Source of the DNA: an uncultured Candidatus Saccharibacteria bacterium
GTDB lineage: Bacteria > Patescibacteriota > Minisyncoccia > Phycocordibacterales > JACOZG01
Reading direction: 5' to 3'
DNA length: 63,433 nt
NCBI GenBank assembly: GCA_964360815.1
Contig: CAYHYA010000003.1
Coordinates: 1-63,433, forward strand
The notes under the pieces: model-generated
Database searches by the model: none
Told to the model about the DNA's origin: nothing
The model's input: only the letters and a program-made list of their open reading frames with translations
Program-made: the position numbers and the translations under genes
Shown: in pieces, positions 11,017-48,299 of the stretch
Position numbering within the stretch: the stretch's first letter is position 1
Layout of the letters: every line of letters begins with the position of its first letter

Positions 11017-12690
11017 GTGATTTACAATCGTCATTGGCGACGCCCGTTTACTCTCGGTGTTTTAGTTTTTGTCGGTTTGGTTTTTTTCTTGACCCTCGGA
11101 TTTTTTAACCCCCAAGTGGTTGAAGGTGCGAGTGGCTCGACTTCGTTATCCGGTTTCGCTTGGAGTTCAAACATCGGCTGGATTAGTTTCAAGGGTTCTG
11201 GTCCTGATTACAGTTACAGTGTCGTCCGTAGCGGTAGCTACTTGCGCGGCTTCGCTTGGAGTTCAAACATCGGCTGGATTAGCTTTAACGATAACACTGG
11301 TGCGCCGCCGGGAAGCATCGCCCCGACTCAGGCTGCCGGTGTCTATTTCCCCATTGGATCTGCTAACCCCAACCAGCTAGCTGGTTGGGCGCGGGCCTGC
11401 GCTGTTTTCGAAAGTGGTTGCTCTGGAACACTAAAACCAGAATCTGATCTAGGCGGTTGGGATGGTTGGATTAGCTTCTTCAGGACAGATGACGGTACCT
11501 TGGGCGGTGATCCAGTCTACGGCGTCGCTCTTAACCCTAGCACGAGCCGATTTGAGGGTTTTGCTTGGGGCGATAGCGTGATCGGCTGGATTGATTTTTG
11601 TCCGGATTCGGCCACTGGCGCCTGCGTGACGCTCGATACGGCCGATGTCTCATGCACGGCAAATGGTCAAGAGCTTGGCGCAGTGGTCAATGTTAATGAA
11701 CCAGTAATTTGGCAAGCCACTGTCAACGGTGTTTCCAATCCCGGCGGCTATTTTTGGATTAGTAATCGTGTCCCCCCAGACGGGGCGAACACCGACCAAG
11801 TAATATCTTCCTACTCTAGTCCCGGTTTTATTGATACTCAGGTTCAGGTTCAGGATAATGTTGGTAATCTTATCGGGACAGGGACTTGTTCAATCACGGT
11901 GGCTGATCTCAATAATCCTAAGTTGACTCTTTATGTTAACGCCACCGGTCCGGCCGGGGGCACGGTGGACATTCCGACTGTTGGCCCCGTTGATGGGACA
12001 CCTAAAAATTGGTGGGTTCCGCCAGGCGGTTGCGGGGTTTCGAGCAGTCCTTGTTTGGGTAACTATGACAGTCTTGGTCAGCAGGATACTCTAGTTGCTC
12101 ACCCCATCCCATTTCCAGACCCGTTAGGTGGTCCGGATATTGTCCCAAATTATACTTGGGTTGGTTGTGATTCTGGTAGCGGTAATCAAAATGGCGTTTG
12201 CGTAGTCACGATGTCTGGGGACAGGGAAGTGAGTGTTAGTTTTTGGGATCCAAATGAGGTGGCGATTACTCTCACGGCCAATCCGCCCTTGGTCGGAATC
12301 GACTTCCAATCCGAAGGCCAACCAGCGGAATCCAATGCCTCGACCATCACCGGCAATGGCAGTGCCGACTGGACGAGAGATGTACGGGTTATCTCATTCA
12401 CTTCATTGATTGACGGCGAAGATATTCAATATAGTGATGATAATCTTGACGATATTTTGGAGTGCGTTTGGGATAACGATAACGCGTACTCTTATAATTG
12501 TTTTGATTCCAGAAGCTATGCCACCATCAGCAATTCTGATCCAACTGCCACACTTAAAGTCAAAGCCACTGACAAGTTAATTGAGATATTAAATAAATCT
12601 CCCTATCGAATCACGGTTGGCACCGGTCGGGCCAACGAAACGACCACTGTGACTTTCGAATATCGCGTTCACGACATCCGGCCACGCTAG
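11017..12690 (+). CDS. secreted/anchored repeat protein with 'GFAWSSNIGWISF'-type repeats
   Basis: 557 aa with an N-terminal TM/signal anchor. The motif GFAWSSNIGWISF(K/N)G is repeated, with further variants (GWDGWISFFRTDDG, GFAWGDSVIGWIDF). The repeat is visible at DNA level as two 41-nt copies with 3 mismatches at 11152-11192 and 11248-11288. The C-terminal region is Cys-rich and beta-rich. Confidence 0.7.
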   Translation: MIYNRHWRRPFTLGVLVFVGLVFFLTLGFFNPQVVEGASGSTSLSGFAWSSNIGWISFKGSGPDYSYSVVRSGSYLRGFAWSSNIGWISFNDNTGAPPGSIAPTQAAGVYFPIGSANPNQLAGWARACAVFESGCSGTLKPESDLGGWDGWISFFRTDDGTLGGDPVYGVALNPSTSRFEGFAWGDSVIGWIDFCPDSATGACVTLDTADVSCTANGQELGAVVNVNEPVIWQATVNGVSNPGGYFWISNRVPPDGANTDQVISSYSSPGFIDTQVQVQDNVGNLIGTGTCSITVADLNNPKLTLYVNATGPAGGTVDIPTVGPVDGTPKNWWVPPGGCGVSSSPCLGNYDSLGQQDTLVAHPIPFPDPLGGPDIVPNYTWVGCDSGSGNQNGVCVVTMSGDREVSVSFWDPNEVAITLTANPPLVGIDFQSEGQPAESNASTITGNGSADWTRDVRVISFTSLIDGEDIQYSDDNLDDILECVWDNDNAYSYNCFDSRSYATISNSDPTATLKVKATDKLIEILNKSPYRITVGTGRANETTTVTFEYRVHDIRPR

Positions 12691-14366: not shown

Positions 14367-14438
14367 GCCAGGATAGCTCAGTTGGTAGAGCAACTGTTTT
14401 GTAAACAGTAGGTCGCGAGTTCAAATCTCGCTCCTGGC
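14367..14438 (+). tRNA. tRNA-Thr (anticodon TGT)
   Basis: GCCAGGA-TA-GCTC-AGTTGGTAGAGC-A-ACTGT-TTTGTAA-ACAGT-AGGTC-GCGAG-TTCAAAT-CTCGC-TCCTGGC-T is a canonical cloverleaf with anticodon UGU. Confidence 0.85.
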
Positions 14439-14439
14439 T

Positions 14440-15576
14440 TCAACGGAGATCGGCCGCAAATTGGCGCCTTGTTTCCAGTTCAATTTTTTGTTGGAGCGGT
14501 TCGATTTCTTCGGCGGTGAGGGTTCGATCAATACGCCGATAAACAATTCGATAGGTGTAACTTAATTTGCCCGCGCCAAACTTGGCTTCATTCTCGTACT
14601 TATCGAGCAGGGTCATTTCTTCGACTAAGTTGCCGCCAAGATCGCGGACCAGATCAAAATAATTGTTGGCGATGAAGGTGTTCGGCACAATAAACGAAAT
14701 ATCGCGGGTGATCGGTGGATACTTGGAAACGTTTTGATATTTTTGACCCAACTTCAGTTGTCGTTTAACTCGCTGGTCGTCCGACCAAAGTAATCTGATA
14801 TCGGGCAGATCCATGCTTAAAATCGCCAATCGCTCAAGACCGAAACCGAACGCCCAACCGTTATAACCAGTGACGCCGAAATTCGCCAGAACATTTTGGC
14901 GCGGTTGTCCGCCACCAAGCACCTCAATCCACTGTCCGTCTTTTTCCACCTCGACCTCTAAACTCGGATCGGTGTAGGGAAAGGTGTCAACATTGAAGCG
15001 GAAATTAATTTGCGCCCCGAACAGGTTCTGGGTAATTTCGGTCAGCACCGTTTTCAGGTCATCAAGATTTAGAACCTGCTGATCGGTTGGTGTTAAATAC
15101 AAGCCCCCCAACTGGTGGAAGACGTTCAGGTGACGGCGATCGATTTCATCCTTACGATAAACTTTGCCATAACAGAGTACGCCAAGCGGTTGACGCGCTT
15201 GGACTTGCGCTCGGACTCGCGGATCGTTTAAGTAGTAAGACCACATCACCGTGTCGTGCGGCCGCAAGATTTCTTTTTCGTTCACGTAATAGGTATCTGA
15301 TTTGCTTCGGGCGGGATGGTCGGGGGCGAAATTGAAGAGGTCGAAATTAATTTTAGCCGGGACGATTTCCGGGATCGTAATCGTGTCAAAGTTTTTAAAC
15401 CGAGGCATCTGTTTGATTGTGGCCACAAGTGCCGACAGGGGACTATCAGCCGCCCGCGATAAGTCTGGCAGAGCGAGCAGACGTTTTAAGCGGATGGCTT
15501 CGGCGTCTTGACGCGCGTTTAATTCGGCCAAAATCCTTTCCTCCTCATCTCGCGGTACCACATAATCTGTTCCCAT
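14440..15576 (-). CDS. pheS: phenylalanyl-tRNA synthetase, PheS catalytic core fused to C-terminal FDX-ACB anticodon-binding domain (monomeric mitochondrial-type architecture)
   Basis: Class II motifs are present: HPARSKSDTYY, FPYTDPS, GWAFGFGLERLA. The C-terminal ~100 aa (YPPITRDISFIVP...FYDLVRDLGGNLVEEMTLLDKYE...KLSYTYRIVYRRIDRTLT) match the ferredoxin-fold anticodon-binding domain otherwise found in PheT and in mitochondrial PheRS. Confidence 0.8.
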   Translation of the reverse strand: MGTDYVVPRDEEERILAELNARQDAEAIRLKRLLALPDLSRAADSPLSALVATIKQMPRFKNFDTITIPEIVPAKINFDLFNFAPDHPARSKSDTYYVNEKEILRPHDTVMWSYYLNDPRVRAQVQARQPLGVLCYGKVYRKDEIDRRHLNVFHQLGGLYLTPTDQQVLNLDDLKTVLTEITQNLFGAQINFRFNVDTFPYTDPSLEVEVEKDGQWIEVLGGGQPRQNVLANFGVTGYNGWAFGFGLERLAILSMDLPDIRLLWSDDQRVKRQLKLGQKYQNVSKYPPITRDISFIVPNTFIANNYFDLVRDLGGNLVEEMTLLDKYENEAKFGAGKLSYTYRIVYRRIDRTLTAEEIEPLQQKIELETRRQFAADLR

Positions 15577-15641
15577 ATCGTCACATTGTAAGCATAAAAT
15601 TGGCCTAAATCAAAGAATGTGCTAAAATAGAGCCATAAAAC

Positions 15642-17603
15642 ATGGTCAAAAGTGACAAGATTCGCAAGTACGACGCCGAGGATATTCTGGTTCTTGAGGG
15701 GCTAGAACCGGTGCGGAAGCGCCCGGGGATGTATATTGGCTCAACCGGCGTGGATGGTTTACACCATCTTTTGGTTGAAATTTTTGACAACGCTCGCGAT
15801 GAGGCGATGAACGGGGCTTGTGACGAAATTGAGGTCGCGCTTTTGCCCGGCGAGATTGTGCGAGTGGCGGATAACGGCGCCGGTATTCCAGTCGCGATTC
15901 ATCCAAAAACCAAAGTTTCCGCCCTCGAGACGGTGATGACCACGCTTCACGCCGGCGGCAAGTTCGAGGGTGAGGGTTACGCGATTGCCGGCGGCTTGCA
16001 CGGAGTTGGGGCGTCGGTGGTTAATGCCTTGTCGGAATGGTTGAGGGTTTACGTTTACCGTGACGGCGGGAAACATTTCCAAGAATACGCTCGGGGGAAA
16101 AAGCGCGCGCCAGTTAAAAAACTGGAAGCGTCGAAACAGCACGGCACAGTGGTTGTGTTTAAACCTGACGCCACCGTTTTTTCCGAACTGGTTTATAATT
16201 GGGAACGGATCGTCGCCCATTTGCGCGGCCAGGCCTATTTGGTTAAGGGATTGCGAATTCGTACGATTGACGCCCGATCGTCTGATCGCCAGATTTCGTT
16301 CGCTGACACACTTTACCTTAAAGAGTTAAACCTCGATTTGCCGTCACGGACCTTTTATTTTGACGGTGGACTTTTGTCCTACGTTCGTTTCCAAGCCCAG
16401 AAAGAAAAGGTCATTCACAAAAATATTTTTTACGCGGAGAAGGAAGCTGACGGCGTTCAAGTGGAAGTGGCTTTTCAATATCTTGATGATATCGTGCCGC
16501 GGGAAATCAGTTTTGCCAACAACACCATCACGCCGGAGGGCGGCACCCATTTGACCGGTTTCCGTACCGCGATAACGAGAACTCTGAATGACTATGGCCG
16601 GAAAAATAATTTGGTTAAAGAAGCGGACGGCAACTTAACCGGTGACGATGTGCGCGAAGGGATCATGGCGGTTATTTCGGTTAAACTGAAGAATCCACAA
16701 TTCGAAGGGCAAACCAAAGCCAAGCTTGGTAACGTCGAGGTGCGTGGGGCGGTGGAAGCCGTGTTTGGGCCGGCTCTCGCGGCTTTTCTGGAAGAAAATC
16801 CCGACGACGCACGGGCGATTATCGGTAAAGTTTTATTGGCTCTCGAAGCGCGCAAGGCCGCCAAGGCCGCCAAGGACAGCGTTTTGCGGAAGGGCGCGCT
16901 TGAGGGCATGACCCTGCCCGGTAAATTAGCCGATTGTCAAACGCGCGAGGCCGCTTTGGCCGAGCTGTTTATCGTTGAGGGTGATTCCGCCGGCGGTTCA
17001 AGCAAGCAGGGGCGTGATCGGGGAACGCAGGCGATTTTGCCACTCAAGGGAAAAATTTTAAACGTTGAGCGAACGCGACTGGACAAGATCTTGGCCTTCA
17101 AAGAAATAAAAGCGCTAATTATTGCTCTTGGTACGTCGATCGGGGACACTTTCACTCTCGATAAATTACGTTATCATAAAATAATTATCGCCACTGATGC
17201 TGACGTCGACGGGGCGCATATCCGTACCCTGCTCCTGACACTATTTTATCGTTATTTTCCGGCAATTATCAGCGGCGGATTTCTCTATATCGCCCAACCA
17301 CCACTTTACAAAATCAAGCGCGGCAAAGAAATTCATTATGCTTATTCGGATGAGGAGAAAGCCAAGGTTTTAAAAACGATTAACGGTGAAGCCAATATCC
17401 AACGCTACAAGGGTCTTGGTGAAATGAACCCCGAAGAATTATGGGAAACAACCATGGATCCGGAACGACGCATCCTAAAGCAGGTTAAGGTGGCCGAGGC
17501 GGCCGAGGCCGACAAAATTTTCACCATCTTGATGGGTGACGAAGTCGAACCACGCAAAATTTTCATCCAAACCCACGCCAAACTGGCGACGCTTGATGTG
17601 TGA
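15642..17603 (+). CDS. gyrB: DNA gyrase subunit B
   Basis: GHKL ATPase N-terminus (LEPVRKRPGMYIGST ... DNGAGIP), TOPRIM (LFIVEGDSAGGS) and C-terminal tail motifs, 653 aa. I cannot distinguish it from ParE by sequence alone. Confidence 0.8.
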   Translation: MVKSDKIRKYDAEDILVLEGLEPVRKRPGMYIGSTGVDGLHHLLVEIFDNARDEAMNGACDEIEVALLPGEIVRVADNGAGIPVAIHPKTKVSALETVMTTLHAGGKFEGEGYAIAGGLHGVGASVVNALSEWLRVYVYRDGGKHFQEYARGKKRAPVKKLEASKQHGTVVVFKPDATVFSELVYNWERIVAHLRGQAYLVKGLRIRTIDARSSDRQISFADTLYLKELNLDLPSRTFYFDGGLLSYVRFQAQKEKVIHKNIFYAEKEADGVQVEVAFQYLDDIVPREISFANNTITPEGGTHLTGFRTAITRTLNDYGRKNNLVKEADGNLTGDDVREGIMAVISVKLKNPQFEGQTKAKLGNVEVRGAVEAVFGPALAAFLEENPDDARAIIGKVLLALEARKAAKAAKDSVLRKGALEGMTLPGKLADCQTREAALAELFIVEGDSAGGSSKQGRDRGTQAILPLKGKILNVERTRLDKILAFKEIKALIIALGTSIGDTFTLDKLRYHKIIIATDADVDGAHIRTLLLTLFYRYFPAIISGGFLYIAQPPLYKIKRGKEIHYAYSDEEKAKVLKTINGEANIQRYKGLGEMNPEELWETTMDPERRILKQVKVAEAAEADKIFTILMGDEVEPRKIFIQTHAKLATLDV

Positions 17604-17658: not shown

Positions 17659-18657
17659 ATGAAAAACTATAAATTATTTTTGGCGGTGGCGGGGTTGCTT
17701 GGTTTAAGCGGGTTTCTCTTTGGTCAGGTTAACGCCCAAACGGTGTCGACCTGTGATTTTACGAGAAATTTGGAAGTCGGTGACGCGGGGGAAGATGTTC
17801 TGTGTTTGCAAAAATTTTTAAACGGTGCCGGTTTCACGATCGCGACTTCGGGAGTTGGTTCGCCCGGCGCAGAGACTGATCTTTTTGGTGAATTAACGAA
17901 GGAAGCTCTAATGCGTTGGCAGGTGGCCCAAGGGATCACGCCAGCTAGCGGCTATTTTGGTCCCAAATCAAGAGTCGTTTATGGCGGTGGCGGAGCGGGG
18001 AGCTCGAGTGTTGCCGGTGTGGCTAGTCCTATCTCGGCCACCACAACCGTCGCGCCAACCCCCATCCTGCCGACCATTCCGGAACTGGTGACTAAATTAA
18101 ACGAATACGCTGTCATCATTAAAAAAATTCAGGACGAAAGGGACGCGTTAGAACAAAATCTAAAAAACGAGAACGAGACCCGCAAACTACTTCAAAAAGC
18201 TCAAAAATTAATTGAAGAAGCTGACGACCGAATTGATGATGCGGCGGCGGGCGAAGATGTGGCCGACGAGAAGAACGATTTGGACGAAGCCGAGGAGGAA
18301 ATTCTCGACGGTCTCTACGCTTTTATTGACCAAGATTATGTTCAAGCCAGAAGCCATGCCGATGATGCGATTGAATTAGCCGAAGATATCACCGAAGAAC
18401 TGGGTGGCGACGAGGAAGAGGCCCAAGACGCGATTGACGACGCCGATAATGCTGTCGATGATGCTAAAGACGAAATCAGAGAGGCCGACGACGACGGGGC
18501 TAACGTTGATGAGGCGAACGACGTGCTCGACGAGGCCAAAGATAAACTGGATGATGCCGAGGAGGCCTACGATGATGAAGATTTTGACGAGGCGATTGAA
18601 TTGGCCGAAGAAGCCGAAAATCTAGCTCGCCAAGCAGTTAGAGCGATCGAAGACTAA
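17659..18657 (+). CDS. secreted protein with peptidoglycan-binding domain and poly-acidic C-terminal region
   Basis: Signal peptide, then a PG_binding_1-like region (GDAGEDVLCLQKFLNGAGF ... ALMRWQ). The C-terminal 150 aa are rich in D, E and A and predicted helical. Confidence 0.65.
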   Translation: MKNYKLFLAVAGLLGLSGFLFGQVNAQTVSTCDFTRNLEVGDAGEDVLCLQKFLNGAGFTIATSGVGSPGAETDLFGELTKEALMRWQVAQGITPASGYFGPKSRVVYGGGGAGSSSVAGVASPISATTTVAPTPILPTIPELVTKLNEYAVIIKKIQDERDALEQNLKNENETRKLLQKAQKLIEEADDRIDDAAAGEDVADEKNDLDEAEEEILDGLYAFIDQDYVQARSHADDAIELAEDITEELGGDEEEAQDAIDDADNAVDDAKDEIREADDDGANVDEANDVLDEAKDKLDDAEEAYDDEDFDEAIELAEEAENLARQAVRAIED

Positions 18658-19864
18658 TTTCTGTTTGCAGTCGAGCAATAAAAGCGTCAACGGAAACGTT
18701 CTCTAGCTTTTCGTGGCGACCCTCGATGGTTAACTGACCGCTCGCGACCTCTTGATCACCGATAATTACGAGATAGGGGACTTTCTGTTCTTTGGCCTGG
18801 CGGATTTTTTTACCCAGAGTTGCGTTATCGAGATTAAGCTCTACTCGGATGTTTTGTTTTTTCAGTTCGGTCAAAACTTGTTCAGCGTGTTGATGGTGCT
18901 GGTCACTGATTGGTAGCACGGTCACTTGCACCGGAGCAAGCCAGAGCGGGAAAGCTCCGGCATAGTACTCGATCAAGAAGGCCATGACTCGTTCGATGGC
19001 GCCGATGGACGAACGGTGAACCACGAACGCCCGTTGTTCTTGGTTGTGCTCGTCAACGTAAGTGAGATTGAATTTTTCCGGCATACAAAAGTCGTACTGC
19101 ACGGTAAAGGCCGTATCTTCTTTGCCGTTGACGTTCTTCATCTGAATGTCGATTTTCGGACCATAAAAAGCCGCTTCGCCTTTAGCTTCGGTAAACGCTT
19201 TACCGCGCTGGTTCATCAGTTCACGCAAGAGAGTTTCGCCCTTGTCCCAGGCCGACGGATTTTTGAAATATTTTTCAGAGTTAGCTTGATCGCCAAGTGA
19301 GAGTCGGTAATTATAATGTTCGCCAAATTTTAAACCAAAGACACTGGTCACATGTTCGATTAAATCAAGGGCGCCGACAATTTCTTCCATCGCTTGTTTT
19401 TCCGAGGCGCAGATAATGTGCGCATCAGCCAAGCAGAAGGTGCGCAAACGCTGTAAGCCCATCAGTTCACCTGACTGTTCATAGCGGTAGAGCTGGGCCA
19501 ATTCGGCGAGGCGGAGAGGCAACTCCCGATAGCTTCTTGGGCGGTGAAGATAGATTTGGAAATGATGCGGACAGGTCATCGGCCGAAGCATAAATTGCTC
19601 ATCGTCAATTTCAATCGGCGCGTACATTGAATCGCGATAATGTGGATAATGGCCAGATTTCTGATACAGGGTTAACCGCGCCAAATCGGGCGTGTGAACA
19701 TGCTGATAACCCCGCTTCTGCTCCTCCTCAAGAATAAACCTCTCCAGTTCCCGTTTAATTATTGCGCCTTTAGGCAGGAACATCGGCAGGCCCTTGCCCA
19801 CTTCTTGGTCAATGTAAAATAAATCCAGTTGCGGCCCGAGTTTTTTGTGATCGCGTTCTTCCAT
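18638..19864 (-). CDS. thrS: threonyl-tRNA synthetase, N-terminally truncated (catalytic + anticodon-binding domains only)
   Basis: Starts at the class II catalytic core (MEERDHKKLGPQLDLFY ... RPMTCPHHFQIY ... QRLRTFCLADAHI). At 408 aa it lacks the TGS and editing domains. Confidence 0.8.
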   Translation of the reverse strand: MEERDHKKLGPQLDLFYIDQEVGKGLPMFLPKGAIIKRELERFILEEEQKRGYQHVHTPDLARLTLYQKSGHYPHYRDSMYAPIEIDDEQFMLRPMTCPHHFQIYLHRPRSYRELPLRLAELAQLYRYEQSGELMGLQRLRTFCLADAHIICASEKQAMEEIVGALDLIEHVTSVFGLKFGEHYNYRLSLGDQANSEKYFKNPSAWDKGETLLRELMNQRGKAFTEAKGEAAFYGPKIDIQMKNVNGKEDTAFTVQYDFCMPEKFNLTYVDEHNQEQRAFVVHRSSIGAIERVMAFLIEYYAGAFPLWLAPVQVTVLPISDQHHQHAEQVLTELKKQNIRVELNLDNATLGKKIRQAKEQKVPYLVIIGDQEVASGQLTIEGRHEKLENVSVDAFIARLQTEISLRSL

Positions 19865-25089: not shown

Positions 25090-26001
25090 ATGGCCAACAG
25101 GCATCTGTCGCGCAGTTTGGCTGTGCAATCGCTTTTTGAGTGGGATTTTAATCAACTGCCGCCTGCGGCGGCTCTGCCGATTGTTGAACGTAATCTGAAA
25201 GAATTTGCCCCGGGTTTAGAGGATCGCTCGTTCACCCAAAAATTAATCACCGGGATTTTAGAATCTCGTCAGAAAATTGACCGAATTATCGAGAAGGCCG
25301 CCCCCGAGTGGCCGCTCGACAAGATTGCGATCATTGATCGGAATGTTTTACGGATTGGTCTTTACGAACTCTTGTTTGCCGACCGCGGGGAAGTGCCTGC
25401 GCGCGTGGCGATTAATGAGGCCATTGAGTTGGCCAAAACTTTTGGCGGTGAGACGAGCGGTAAGTTCGTCAACGGTGTTTTGGGCACGGTGTATAAAGAA
25501 ATTGGCGAGCCGGGCAAAGACGAAGTGCCGGCCAAGAAACGACGAGCCAAGGATTTGAAATATGAAGACCTGCCGATCGAAAATTTGGGCGGCGCGGTGG
25601 TTTACTCACACCGTCCCGACGGGCTGATTCTGCTAGCTTTCGTTCATGATATTTTCGGCTACTGGACGTTATCGAAAGGGCATATCAATCCCGGAGAAGA
25701 AGCATCGGCGGCGACGGTTCGAGAAGTTAAAGAAGAACTGTCTTTGACGGTTGAGATTAAAGAAGAGCTTGGGGTGAACGAGTATGTCGCTAGTCATCCG
25801 GAGAAGGGTAAAATTAGAAAGCGGGTCAGTTACTTTTTAGCTCAAGCACACGACGAAAACGAACTACGGCTAAACAAAAATCAAGGTCTCGACGACGCGC
25901 GGTGGTTCCCACTGGAAGAGATTTTGGAACTAAAAATTTATGATGATGTTTTACCGATCGTGACGCGGGCGATTAAAAAATTATCCGAACCAACGCCATG
26001 A
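25090..26001 (+). CDS. nusB: NusB antitermination factor fused to C-terminal NUDIX hydrolase domain
   Basis: aa 1-~140 are NusB-like (AVQSLFEWDF ... RIGLYELLF ... AINEAIELAK). After a basic linker, aa ~165-303 carry a Nudix box (GHINPGEEASAATVREVKEELSL). It is a single continuous ORF. Confidence 0.75.
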   Translation: MANRHLSRSLAVQSLFEWDFNQLPPAAALPIVERNLKEFAPGLEDRSFTQKLITGILESRQKIDRIIEKAAPEWPLDKIAIIDRNVLRIGLYELLFADRGEVPARVAINEAIELAKTFGGETSGKFVNGVLGTVYKEIGEPGKDEVPAKKRRAKDLKYEDLPIENLGGAVVYSHRPDGLILLAFVHDIFGYWTLSKGHINPGEEASAATVREVKEELSLTVEIKEELGVNEYVASHPEKGKIRKRVSYFLAQAHDENELRLNKNQGLDDARWFPLEEILELKIYDDVLPIVTRAIKKLSEPTP

Positions 26002-46521: not shown

Positions 46522-46983
46522 ATGAACAAAATTTTTATCTGGATTATAATAATCATTCTGGCCGCCCTGGGGATTTGGTATTTTTCCTCGTCTAGTCTAA
46601 ATAATGACGACAAGGGGGAGGTGATGATCCCGCTAACTTCGCCAGCCGGCGAACGCGGCAATCTTGACGACACCGACAACAGCGTGGAAGCCCTACCGGC
46701 GCTCGTGGCGACGCGTGATTTCGTGGTGATCGGCGCCGATTTCAAATTTTCGCCCGCCGAGATCAAAGTTAAGTCCGGTGATCGGGTGAAGCTAACTTTG
46801 AAAAGCTCCGACATGCCGCACGATTGGCGCGTCGACGAATTGAACTTAGCCACGCGCATTCTCCAAGCTGGCGAAGAACAAACGATTGAATTCACTGCCG
46901 GTCCGGCCGGAACCTACGAGGCCTATTGTTCGGTGGGTAATCATCGAGCGAAGGGGATGGTGGGCAAACTGATTATTGAATAG
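46522..46983 (+). CDS. membrane-anchored cupredoxin (plastocyanin/azurin-like blue copper protein)
   Basis: N-terminal TM anchor. Type-1 copper ligands are arranged as H (PHDW), C, H and M (CSVGNHRAKGM). Confidence 0.7.
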   Translation: MNKIFIWIIIIILAALGIWYFSSSSLNNDDKGEVMIPLTSPAGERGNLDDTDNSVEALPALVATRDFVVIGADFKFSPAEIKVKSGDRVKLTLKSSDMPHDWRVDELNLATRILQAGEEQTIEFTAGPAGTYEAYCSVGNHRAKGMVGKLIIE

Positions 46984-47000
46984 CCCTTGCGCCGAGTGAT

Positions 47001-48299
47001 ATGATGAAGCGTTTCTGGTTTGCCTTTTATCTGGCGAACTGGTTCGTCGTTTTCTATTTCTGGGCGGCTAATTTTAACCAAACACTTTTGATCGAGTTCG
47101 GCCAACTGGCTGGATTGGTCGCCGCCAATCTCGTCGTTACGCAGTTCTTCTTAATGAGTCGTTTACCGTGGCTCGAGCATTACTTTGGTCTTGATCGCCT
47201 GTCGCGCTTCCATCAAATTAATGGGAAGATCGTGATCGTCTTCATCTTGCTCCATCCGGCGCTGTTACTCTATGGTTACGCCCGGCAAAGCGGTATCAGT
47301 TTCGGTCAATCGTTGCTCGGTTTTCTGACTGGTTACGAACACGGTTGGCTCACTCTGACCGGCCTAATTCTTTTTGTGATTGTGGTTGTCACTTCGCTCG
47401 CCATCATCCGTCTTCGTCTGCGCTACGAAACTTGGTATTTTACTCACCTCGCGGTTTATTTGGCCGTCTTCTTTTCTTTTTGGCACCAAATTGAGCTCGG
47501 AACGACAGTTACAAGCAACCGCTGGTTCTATGTCTATTGGTTGGCACTGTATCTTTTCGTCGGACTGATTTATTTAACCTTTCGTTTTCTTCGTCCACTT
47601 TATCTTCTTCACCGGCACCGGTTTATCGTGGCGCGAGTGACGGCAGAAAGTCCCGGTACGTCCTCGGTCAGTATTTTCGGCCGTAAGCTCGAGCATTTTC
47701 CGATTCGGGCGGGACAATTTATGATCGTGCGCTTTCTCACACGAAAACTCTGGTGGCAAGCCCACCCTTTTTCGTTGTCCCAGTTGCCTGACGGCCGCGA
47801 GTTGCGCTTAACGATTAAGGCGGTCGGTGATTACACCAAGCAAATTAAAAACCTTCAGCCCGGAACGAGAGTGCTGATTGACGGGCCATACGGAGTGTTC
47901 ACTAGTTTGTTCAACTTGTCGCCAAAAGTCCTGATGATCGCCGGCGGGATCGGGATCACGCCGCTTCGCTCGTTAATGGAGGAAATGTTGCAAACTGGCA
48001 AAGATGTCGTTCTGCTTTATGGTAATCGTCATCAGCCAGAAATTGTTTTCAAACGTGAGTTGGATGAACTCGTAAACCAACACCACACGCGCGTGGTTCA
48101 TGTTATCAGTGATGAGCCGAATTATTCGGGCGAGCGGGGGAGAATTGATGAAGAAAAATTGCGCCGCCTCGTGCCTGATTTGGCCGAGCGCGAGGTTTAT
48201 CTCTGCGGCCCAGAGCCGATGATGCAGGCCCTAATTTCGACCCTGCGCCAACTTGGTCTACCGCGCCAGCGTCTGCACTACGAAAAGTTTTCGTTTTAG
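47001..48299 (+). CDS. ferric reductase/NOX-like transmembrane flavocytochrome (FRD TM domain + FAD + NAD(P)H binding)
   Basis: Six TM helices with paired His residues (HQINGKIVIVFILLHP; FTHLAVYLAVFFSFWH). An FAD-binding HPFS motif and an NAD(P)H-binding segment (MIAGGIGITP) are also present. Confidence 0.75.
   Translation: MMKRFWFAFYLANWFVVFYFWAANFNQTLLIEFGQLAGLVAANLVVTQFFLMSRLPWLEHYFGLDRLSRFHQINGKIVIVFILLHPALLLYGYARQSGISFGQSLLGFLTGYEHGWLTLTGLILFVIVVVTSLAIIRLRLRYETWYFTHLAVYLAVFFSFWHQIELGTTVTSNRWFYVYWLALYLFVGLIYLTFRFLRPLYLLHRHRFIVARVTAESPGTSSVSIFGRKLEHFPIRAGQFMIVRFLTRKLWWQAHPFSLSQLPDGRELRLTIKAVGDYTKQIKNLQPGTRVLIDGPYGVFTSLFNLSPKVLMIAGGIGITPLRSLMEEMLQTGKDVVLLYGNRHQPEIVFKRELDELVNQHHTRVVHVISDEPNYSGERGRIDEEKLRRLVPDLAEREVYLCGPEPMMQALISTLRQLGLPRQRLHYEKFSF

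Follow-up and report, generated by a model that had tools for sequence, protein, structure and literature searches.

How a bacterium charges tRNA-Phe when its phenylalanyl-tRNA synthetase (PheRS) gene stands without pheT is the question raised by the gene at positions 14440..15576 (minus strand) of contig CAYHYA010000003.1, from an uncultured bacterium deposited as Candidatus Saccharibacteria (assembly GCA_964360815.1). The window analyzed here is this contig from positions 1 to 63,433. The initial annotation took the gene for a monomeric, mitochondrial-type PheRS, in which a PheS core is fused to an FDX-ACB domain, and offered minimisation or horizontal transfer as its possible origin. Single-chain enzymes of this kind are known from mitochondria under the name PheRS-M (PMC11580382). 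The most likely reading, to which we assign a probability of about 0.75, is that the gene encodes a working single-chain PheRS of PheRS-M architecture that displaced pheS-pheT beside gyrB and is probably the only PheRS of the organism.

The open reading frame (ORF) extends from an ATG at 15576 to a stop codon at 14440-14442 and encodes 378 residues; an identical protein, P0001, is present in the public protein collection, and every peptide quoted in the initial annotation occurs in the translation. Pfam identifies two domains in the one chain, as had been proposed. The class II catalytic core (residues 42-273; 14758..15453, minus strand) matches PF01409 (tRNA-synt_2d) with E 2e-53 and the FDX-ACB anticodon-binding domain (residues 284-378; 14443..14727, minus strand) matches PF03147 with E 1e-20, both scoring far above the gathering thresholds. 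The core was described from alignments with Escherichia coli PheS and organellar enzymes and from residue conservation in 119 + 120 family members; it includes the HPAR sequence, motif 2 (VYRKD...FHQLGG), FPYT and motif 3 (GWAFGFGLER). Two segments of its translation recur in the description of the substrate pocket below: HDTVMW (residues 107-112; 15241..15258, minus strand) and FHQLGG (residues 153-158; 15103..15120, minus strand), which forms the second strand of motif 2. The core is preceded by a short helical hairpin (residues 1-41; 15454..15576, minus strand) with helices at 10-21 and 25-35 in an AlphaFold2 model, and the Pfam scan gave no match to PF02912, the N-terminal coiled coil of PheS. 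A linker of residues 274-283 (14728..14757, minus strand), delimited by alignment with E. coli PheS, connects the end of the PheS module to the anticodon-binding domain. The C terminus of E. coli PheS coincides with the start of this linker (...DLRFLKQFK aligned with ...DQRVKRQLK).

Both sequence and fold make human mitochondrial PheRS the closest solved relative of the window enzyme, and the organellar type of architecture claimed for it is borne out. This structure is the best sequence match in the PDB (E 1e-57), followed by the α chains of bacterial PheS (E 1e-34) and by PheT, which is matched through its last domain only (E 1e-4). On its own, the FDX-ACB domain reaches 63 bits with the mitochondrial enzyme, and no solved PheT gives it more than 29 bits. 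The AlphaFold2 model (pLDDT 91.9) superimposes over its full length on the tRNA-bound, open state of the human enzyme (3tup_A) with a TM-score of 0.76 and a root mean square deviation of 3.9 Å, but fits the closed apo form poorly (TM-score 0.58). Organellar PheRS (FARS2/Msf1; TIGR00469; PheRS-M of AARS Online; PDB 3CMQ and 3TUP) has the same two-module chain, and the window enzyme shares with it the absence of an N-terminal coiled coil, the order of PheS core and FDX-ACB domain, and homology over the full length. Unlike the organellar enzymes, it is bacterially encoded and lacks an insertion of ∼30-40 residues between motifs 2 and 3. The single-chain PheRS of huge phages also has this two-domain architecture, in a chain of ∼350 residues.

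In comparison with the canonical (αβ)2 PheRS, the catalytic motifs and the phenylalanine pocket (FPxT and GxAFG, with Ala) match those of PheS, and the FDX-ACB domain is homologous to domain B8 of PheT, with the same G34-binding residues. The window enzyme differs from the canonical one in consisting of a single chain that has neither PF02912 nor domains B1-B7; because these domains are missing, it lacks the B3/B4 editing site as well as the B2 domain for tRNA binding. The canonical PheS proteins of Patescibacteria are 329-348 residues long (with one shorter ORF call of 275 residues), and PF02912 is listed for PheS in the published annotations of two metagenome-assembled genomes (MAGs) of Patescibacteria (PMC10936435, PMC9763046).

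The residues expected for phenylalanine activation and anticodon recognition were compared in an alignment of 239 sequences, 119 from the subclade of the window enzyme and 120 from a sister subclade. HPAR, Arg141 of motif 2, His154, the pocket residues Phe199, Thr202 and Ala242, and Arg249 of motif 3 are invariant in all 239, and Gln155 is retained in 238. In the FDX-ACB domain, Asp292 and Ser294 of RDIS align with RDIA of E. coli PheT, Asp325 and Tyr327 of LDKY with FDVY, and Arg378 at the C terminus with ...LR; all five are invariant or conservatively substituted (Tyr/Phe, Ser/Thr) throughout the alignment. These five residues are the equivalents of Asp745, Ser747, Asp778, Phe780 and Arg830 in the β subunit of Mycobacterium tuberculosis PheRS, which stack on and hydrogen-bond to G34 and contact A35 and A36 (PMC8136816). 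Judged from the alignment, the conserved residues are the signature of an enzyme that reads a GAA anticodon and activates a phenylalanine-like amino acid. From homology to the human and yeast mitochondrial enzymes, the protein is predicted to be a monomer and to charge tRNA-Phe. In the proposed mechanism, the class II core would activate phenylalanine with ATP, and the fused FDX-ACB domain would hold tRNA-Phe by its GAA anticodon, in which G34 would be contacted by Tyr327 through stacking and by Asp325 and Arg378 through hydrogen bonds. Phenylalanine would then be transferred to A76. Charging would take place without a β subunit and hence without a B3/B4 editing site.

Two positions of the pocket distinguish the subclades. 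Position 157, in the FHQx-E/D-G sequence, is Gly in all 119 members of the window's subclade and Asp in all 120 members of the sister subclade, and is Glu or Asp in the canonical and organellar enzymes that were compared. Position 108, the first residue of a helix (108-116) in the AlphaFold2 model, is Asp in 119 of 119 and Thr, Met or Ala in 120 of 120, respectively; in canonical and organellar enzymes it is not Asp and is mostly Thr or Met, Thr being the residue of the usual HTSxxQ segment. The co-variation is perfect over the 239 sequences, Asp108 occurring with Gly157, and Thr, Met or Ala at 108 occurring with Asp157. At a third position, the Gln of HTSxxQ is replaced by Trp112 in both Patescibacteria subclades. 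In M. tuberculosis PheRS, the equivalent residues Glu217, Ser177 and Gln180 form a hydrogen-bond network behind a water that contacts the amino group of the substrate, and His175, Ser177 and Gln180, the equivalents of residues in HDTVMW, belong to the network around this group (PMC8136816). In human mitochondrial PheRS, Gln124 and Glu159, at the positions of Trp112 and Gly157 in the window enzyme, hydrogen-bond to the meta-hydroxyl of the toxic analogue meta-tyrosine (m-Tyr) (PMC3275996). Because the co-variation of residues 108 and 157 is perfect, it suggests that a carboxylate has been relocated within the pocket. That this exchange of charge tightens specificity in an enzyme without editing is speculation.

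The claim that pheT is not adjacent stands, and it can be extended to the whole window. Used as tblastn queries against the window, E. coli PheT and five PheT sequences of Patescibacteria, the latter trimmed of domain B8, matched nothing apart from the FDX-ACB domain of the window enzyme itself. Pfam scans of 46 ORFs of the window, comprising all those of at least 200 residues except one antisense to dnaE and most of those of 150-199 residues, found no B3_4, B5 or tRNA_bind domain. There is no second pheS in the 63 kb. At the loci that carry a single-chain gene, within the ∼2.1 Mb searched, neither the B3-B7 region of pheT nor an extra pheS was found. The reverse situation is seen in published gene lists. 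In the MAG PMX_810_sub (Ca. Yanofskyibacterium, Paceibacterales; 866 genes listed), canonical pheT and pheS are adjacent, and since PF03147 (in PheT) and PF01409 each occur once, the list contains no fused gene (PMC10936435 Table S2). The MAG PMX.50 (Ca. Microsyncoccus) has pheS(00316)-pheT(00317) and also lacks a fused gene (PMC9763046). A single "Phenylalanyl-tRNA" column in the list of 43 marker genes for the candidate phyla radiation (PMC9166423 Table S2) is a further hint. We consider it probable, with somewhat more than ordinary assurance, that the genome from which the window derives lacks pheS-pheT.

The place taken by the single-chain gene can be compared between genomes because gyrB (15642..17603, plus strand; 58% identical by tblastn to the GyrB of a Staskawiczbacteria locus, L093) serves as an anchor of synteny. 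In PMX.50, the order of genes is pheS-pheT-gyrB-secE-nusG-rplK, whereas in L093 it is single-chain gene-gyrB-NUDIX-secE-nusG-rplK, and in a further locus (L001) a B2 ORF, the single-chain gene and one other gene precede gyrB...nusG-rplK-rplA. Among 80 metagenomic gyrB loci fetched with the GyrB of L093, canonical pheS-pheT lies upstream of gyrB in 7 and a single-chain gene in 10; no locus has both. Genes nusG-rplK follow gyrB in members of both groups, and both types of PheRS occur among loci with GyrB proteins that share 71-76% identity with the L093 protein. No conservation was detected in the flanks upstream of the canonical and single-chain slots, so the slot is defined by its gyrB side only. 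Thus, in these related genomes, the gyrB slot holds either pheS-pheT or the single-chain gene and never both. The canonical PheT proteins encoded at this slot are themselves variable in length: those of L098, L101, L105, L106 and L107 have just 640-701 residues and lack the N-terminal B1/B2 region, which is retained in L116 and L129 (780-795 residues). A remark in PMC5370408 agrees with the occurrence of Patescibacteria PheT without the B1/B2 N terminus.

In loci of the Doudnabacteria type, a stand-alone B2 (tRNA_bind) ORF of 140 residues is present directly upstream of the single-chain gene (L001:9558-9980; also in L019, L037, L059, L072, L127, L130, L131 and L132). Its best NCBIfam match is to positions 35-151 of pheT_bact, and it shares 62% identity with the N terminus of canonical PheT from L129, a related locus. 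At least 736 homologues likewise stand alone and are labelled "phenylalanyl-tRNA synthetase beta chain" in IMG. When the B2 protein was used to look for a full-length PheT, the best 120 matches were all B2-only proteins of ∼140 residues. The B2 ORF may be a remnant of PheT that has been kept as a tRNA-binding factor acting in trans. An ORF of 516 residues upstream of the B2 gene in L001 was also considered as a remnant of PheT and was ruled out, as it has no Pfam match.

The catalytic core was used to construct neighbour-joining trees, first with five canonical PheS sequences and then with seven more from the gyrB slot of Patescibacteria. All canonical sequences are separated from all single-chain sequences in 100 of 100 bootstrap replicates with either 5 or 12 canonical sequences. 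The Patescibacteria single-chain enzymes form a clade (83-89%), and a grouping of these with the canonical enzymes of Patescibacteria was obtained in 0 of 100 replicates. The core of the window enzyme is 30-37% identical to canonical PheS of Patescibacteria, 34-35% identical to PheS of E. coli and Staphylococcus, and 43% identical to organellar enzymes. The other branch of the single-chain clade contains organellar enzymes (S. osmophilus Msf1, a fern enzyme and P0160 from Vitrella), together with enzymes of ∼350 residues of which at least one is encoded on a 340-kb phage-like contig; the monophyly of this organellar and phage branch is weak (34-47%). When rooted with the canonical sequences, the tree has the Patescibacteria clade as the sister of the organellar and phage group, and not nested within it. 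The comparison with bacterial PheS and organellar enzymes therefore places the window enzyme with the single-chain clade. Since the tree sets the single-chain enzymes apart from the canonical PheS of Patescibacteria, it points to a foreign homologue that displaced the pheS-pheT operon in place and not to a local deletion and fusion. Of the two origins that had been offered at the outset, horizontal transfer is favored by the 100/100 split and minimisation by fusion of the local pheS and pheT is disfavored. In the scenario that we propose, a single-chain clade extending through the Patescibacteria would have displaced the resident pheS-pheT in situ, next to gyrB.

Phage-encoded relatives deserve separate mention. 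The sources of the ∼350-residue relatives are known for P0277, LR745206.1 and the Vitrella protein P0160 only. P0277 is encoded at L006:10001-11047, on a 340-kb contig (ERZ19027398 scaffold_19), among genes for PhageMetallopep, PcfJ and SNF2 proteins and many unknown genes; P0138, the representative of its cluster at 90% identity, passes the cut-off of the pheS_mito model and groups with the organellar enzymes. The single-chain PheRS of ∼350 residues encoded by LR745206.1 (L091), an uncultured phage of 634 kb, has an unstable placement at the base of the tree. A canonical type of arrangement is also found in a phage: the complete genome of Ruminococcus phage NatCom_28775 (PV036440.1, 3613-7046; L090) has a pheS-like gene for 350 residues followed, in the position of pheT, by an ORF of 789 residues, both annotated as hypothetical.

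Contrary to what the initial annotation had implied, the gene is not a singular case. When 5.8 billion protein clusters were searched and 8,000 candidates scored, no fewer than 6,915 homologues reached E ≤ 1e-10. The best 120 all have two domains, are 63-74% identical to the window enzyme, and bear the names Patescibacteria, Paceibacterota, Zambryskibacteria or Vogelbacteria. In a set with one genome for each GTDB species, relatives of the window enzyme are encoded at no fewer than 555 loci, with identities of 59-74% (best 74%) among the matches listed. The titles of the best 80 of these loci include Zambryski-, Vogel-, Kaiser-, Adler-, Taylor-, Colwell-, Harrison-, Lipton-, Nomura-, Jorgensen- and Doudnabacteria. 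The second subclade, of ∼381 residues and with ∼43-47% identity to the core of the window enzyme, comprises sequences from Wolfe-, Staskawicz-, Nealson- and Portnoybacteria. With so many species and a second subclade, the single-chain PheRS characterizes much of the class Paceibacteria, along with neighbouring groups, and is not a peculiarity of this contig. Some labels in this set appear to be in error. Many loci of relatives titled "uncultured Candidatus Saccharibacteria", from co-assembly MAGs, carry genes of the Paceibacteria type, and P0124 (MBX7144632.1), labelled as from an Oligoflexia bacterium, nests in the second Patescibacteria subclade, probably as a result of a binning error.

Two alternative histories of the gene can be weighed against displacement by a foreign homologue. 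A deletion within the resident operon, by which pheS became joined at its end to the final domain of pheT, would account for the location of the single-chain gene in the slot of pheS-pheT, for the junction of the two modules, where the PheS part stops exactly at the start of the FDX-ACB domain, and for the B2 remnant of PheT in one lineage. Against such a fusion, the tree with seven canonical PheS sequences from the same slot gave the split of canonical from single-chain sequences in 100 of 100 replicates and the Patescibacteria-only grouping in none; the core is closer to organellar enzymes (43%) than to canonical PheS of Patescibacteria (30-37%), and the FDX-ACB domain scores 63 bits against the mitochondrial enzyme as compared with 29 bits against the best solved PheT. 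On the basis of the tree, this origin is rejected as very improbable. That the closest solved structures are those of human mitochondrial PheRS could reflect a recent transfer of a eukaryotic mitochondrial gene, or eukaryotic contamination of the assembly. We regard this as scarcely credible, as the insertion between motifs 2 and 3 of the organellar enzymes is absent, the gene is distributed across many candidate lineages, and the Patescibacteria sequences form a clade of their own (83-89%) beside the organellar and phage group and not inside it. Contamination in particular is rejected because the gene is surrounded by the bacterial genes rpsB, tsf, gyrB, dnaE, rpoB and rpoC.

A different possibility is that the protein is an accessory paralogue that acts beside a pheS-pheT located elsewhere, with a substrate other than phenylalanine or with a special tRNA or another acceptor, in the manner of the "PheS-related mystery ligase SrmL" of NCBIfam. 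Several observations weigh against a working PheRS and in part toward this alternative. The top NCBIfam match of the window enzyme is the SrmL model, NF051887 (225.5 bits; cut-off 300), and its scores are below the curated cut-offs of TIGR00469 pheS_mito (219.6 bits; cut-off 258.35) and TIGR00468 pheS (157.2 bits; cut-off 237.45), as well as that of TIGR00472 pheT (68 bits; cut-off 403). As all of these cut-offs are missed, most members of the family are annotated as hypothetical proteins by NCBI. The pocket of the subclade has Gly157 in place of Glu or Asp and Trp112 in place of Gln, in addition to Asp108, and an altered amino acid specificity is possible from the sequence. The search for pheT in this genome spans one window of 63 kb, and a pheS-pheT on other contigs is possible; the canonical operon of PMX_810_sub, for example, adjoins rpsS and not gyrB. 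Finally, the trees were made by neighbour joining, a simple distance method, with just 12 canonical outgroup sequences.

The TIGR00469 model was built on eukaryotic sequences with an insertion that the window enzyme lacks; 17 of the 18 relatives of ∼350 residues that were scanned pass its cut-off, unlike the window enzyme. The SrmL model is matched nearly from end to end (positions 17-345 of 349) and has the same layout of core and C-terminal domain, but its cut-off is not reached by any of the 21 family members and relatives scanned, which include the window enzyme and 20 distant relatives, so the true SrmL proteins would be a different and narrower group. No paper on SrmL was found in the literature searched. 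Little or no variation is seen in the residues that read G34 or in Phe199, Thr202 and Ala242. In relatives, pheS-pheT holds the slot that the gene occupies, no locus has both, neither of the two published gene lists with pheS-pheT includes a fused gene, and what looks like a decayed remnant of PheT adjoins the single-chain gene in one lineage. A role as an accessory ligase thus appears unlikely, and a single-chain PheRS that took the place of pheS-pheT remains the preferred reading.

The immediate surroundings of the gene are also conserved in part. A tRNA-Thr(UGU) gene (14367..14439, plus strand; ARAGORN) abuts the stop codon of the PheRS gene. The initial annotation placed it downstream in place of pheT; it is indeed a neighbour, and one conserved in relatives, but it lies on the opposite strand in a convergent orientation and is not part of an operon. 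In many relatives of the window's subclade (for example L010, L011, L014, L015, L036 and L038), a tRNA-Thr(UGU) gene likewise converges on the PheRS gene and lies no more than a few bases from its stop codon, and this tRNA gene is a conserved neighbour, neither a part of the enzyme nor a substitute for pheT. On the other side, a divergent intergenic region of 65 bp (15577..15641) separates PheRS from gyrB. It contains promoter-like hexamers on the minus strand (TTGATT-17-TACAAT, ending 8 nucleotides before the PheRS ATG) and on the plus strand (TTGGCC-17-TAAAAT), each a weak consensus match alone, with three sites found as compared with 1.6 expected. The window is rich in housekeeping genes (prf, rpsB, tsf, gyrB, dnaE, rnc, smc, trmD, rpoB, rpoC, dnaG and rpoD), and no rplT or infC was found in it to serve as an anchor.

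Other genes of the window include a second class II aminoacyl-tRNA synthetase of 408 residues (18641-19864, minus strand; tRNA-synt_2b and HGTP_anticodon), 1 kb beyond gyrB. An ORF for 303 residues at 25090-25998 (plus strand) is a fusion of NusB with a NUDIX hydrolase and overlaps the start of rnc by one base. At 46522-48296 (plus strand), the gene for a cupredoxin-like protein of 153 residues precedes one for a NOX/FRE-type protein (432 residues; Ferric_reduct, FAD_binding_8 and NAD_binding_1), a pair that is unexpected redox equipment for a bacterium with a reduced genome. The minus-strand ORF at 57459-60002 encodes a protein of 848 residues resembling the Major Vault Protein, with the shoulder domain PF11978 (E 6e-26), the vault repeat PF17795 and a Band_7/SPFH domain. 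An ORF of 557 residues at 11017-12690 (plus strand) has a transmembrane segment at its N terminus, contains the motif "GFAWSSNIGWISF" in repeated copies and gives no Pfam match.

Reviews treat the heterotetramer with an editing site in its β subunit as the bacterial PheRS and the single-chain enzyme as the mitochondrial one (PMC3275996, PMC11580382), and in the literature searched, including reviews of aminoacyl-tRNA synthetases, no description of a bacterial single-chain PheRS was found. The single-chain PheRS of mitochondria and the nearby "mystery ligase" model of NCBI are known already. What appears to be undescribed in that literature is the bacterial sister clade, likely to be the only PheRS in much of the Patescibacteria, along with the displacement of pheS-pheT in place, the B2 remnant and the exchange of charge in the pocket.

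A broader and tentative interpretation, which we put forward as doubtful when its parts are taken together, combines a prokaryotic root of mitochondrial PheRS with a relocated pocket carboxylate that excludes m-Tyr and Tyr without editing. In this interpretation, the fused single-chain PheRS would not be a eukaryotic invention, and the Patescibacteria would possess an enzyme lineage that is sister to the organellar one. The mitochondrial PheRS of all eukaryotes may descend from a pre-existing prokaryotic single-chain PheRS or share with it a bacterial or phage donor, and the prokaryotic form would have spread by taking the place of pheS-pheT at its own locus, perhaps with huge phages as carriers. 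The changes of Asp157 to Gly and Thr108 to Asp, on top of the change of Gln to Trp112 that is shared with the sister subclade, may provide the means of excluding m-Tyr and Tyr.

The single-chain PheRS accounts for two artefacts of annotation, the "hypothetical" proteins of NCBI and the "beta chain" label given by IMG to the B2 remnant of 140 residues, and completeness markers based on pheT would fail in lineages that carry it. It offers compact bacterial PheRS scaffolds, independent of a β subunit, for engineering, and is of interest to specialists in aminoacyl-tRNA synthetases and in the evolution of organelles, for whom it supplies a prokaryotic sister group with which to ask about the origin of mitochondrial PheRS. 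For the bacteria themselves, the finding would mean that a very large group, of at least 555 species-level genomes, relies on a single-chain PheRS, most likely as the sole PheRS, and that these lineages, with the exchange of pocket charge in 119 of 119 as compared with 120 of 120 sequences, are natural experiments on life without PheRS editing.

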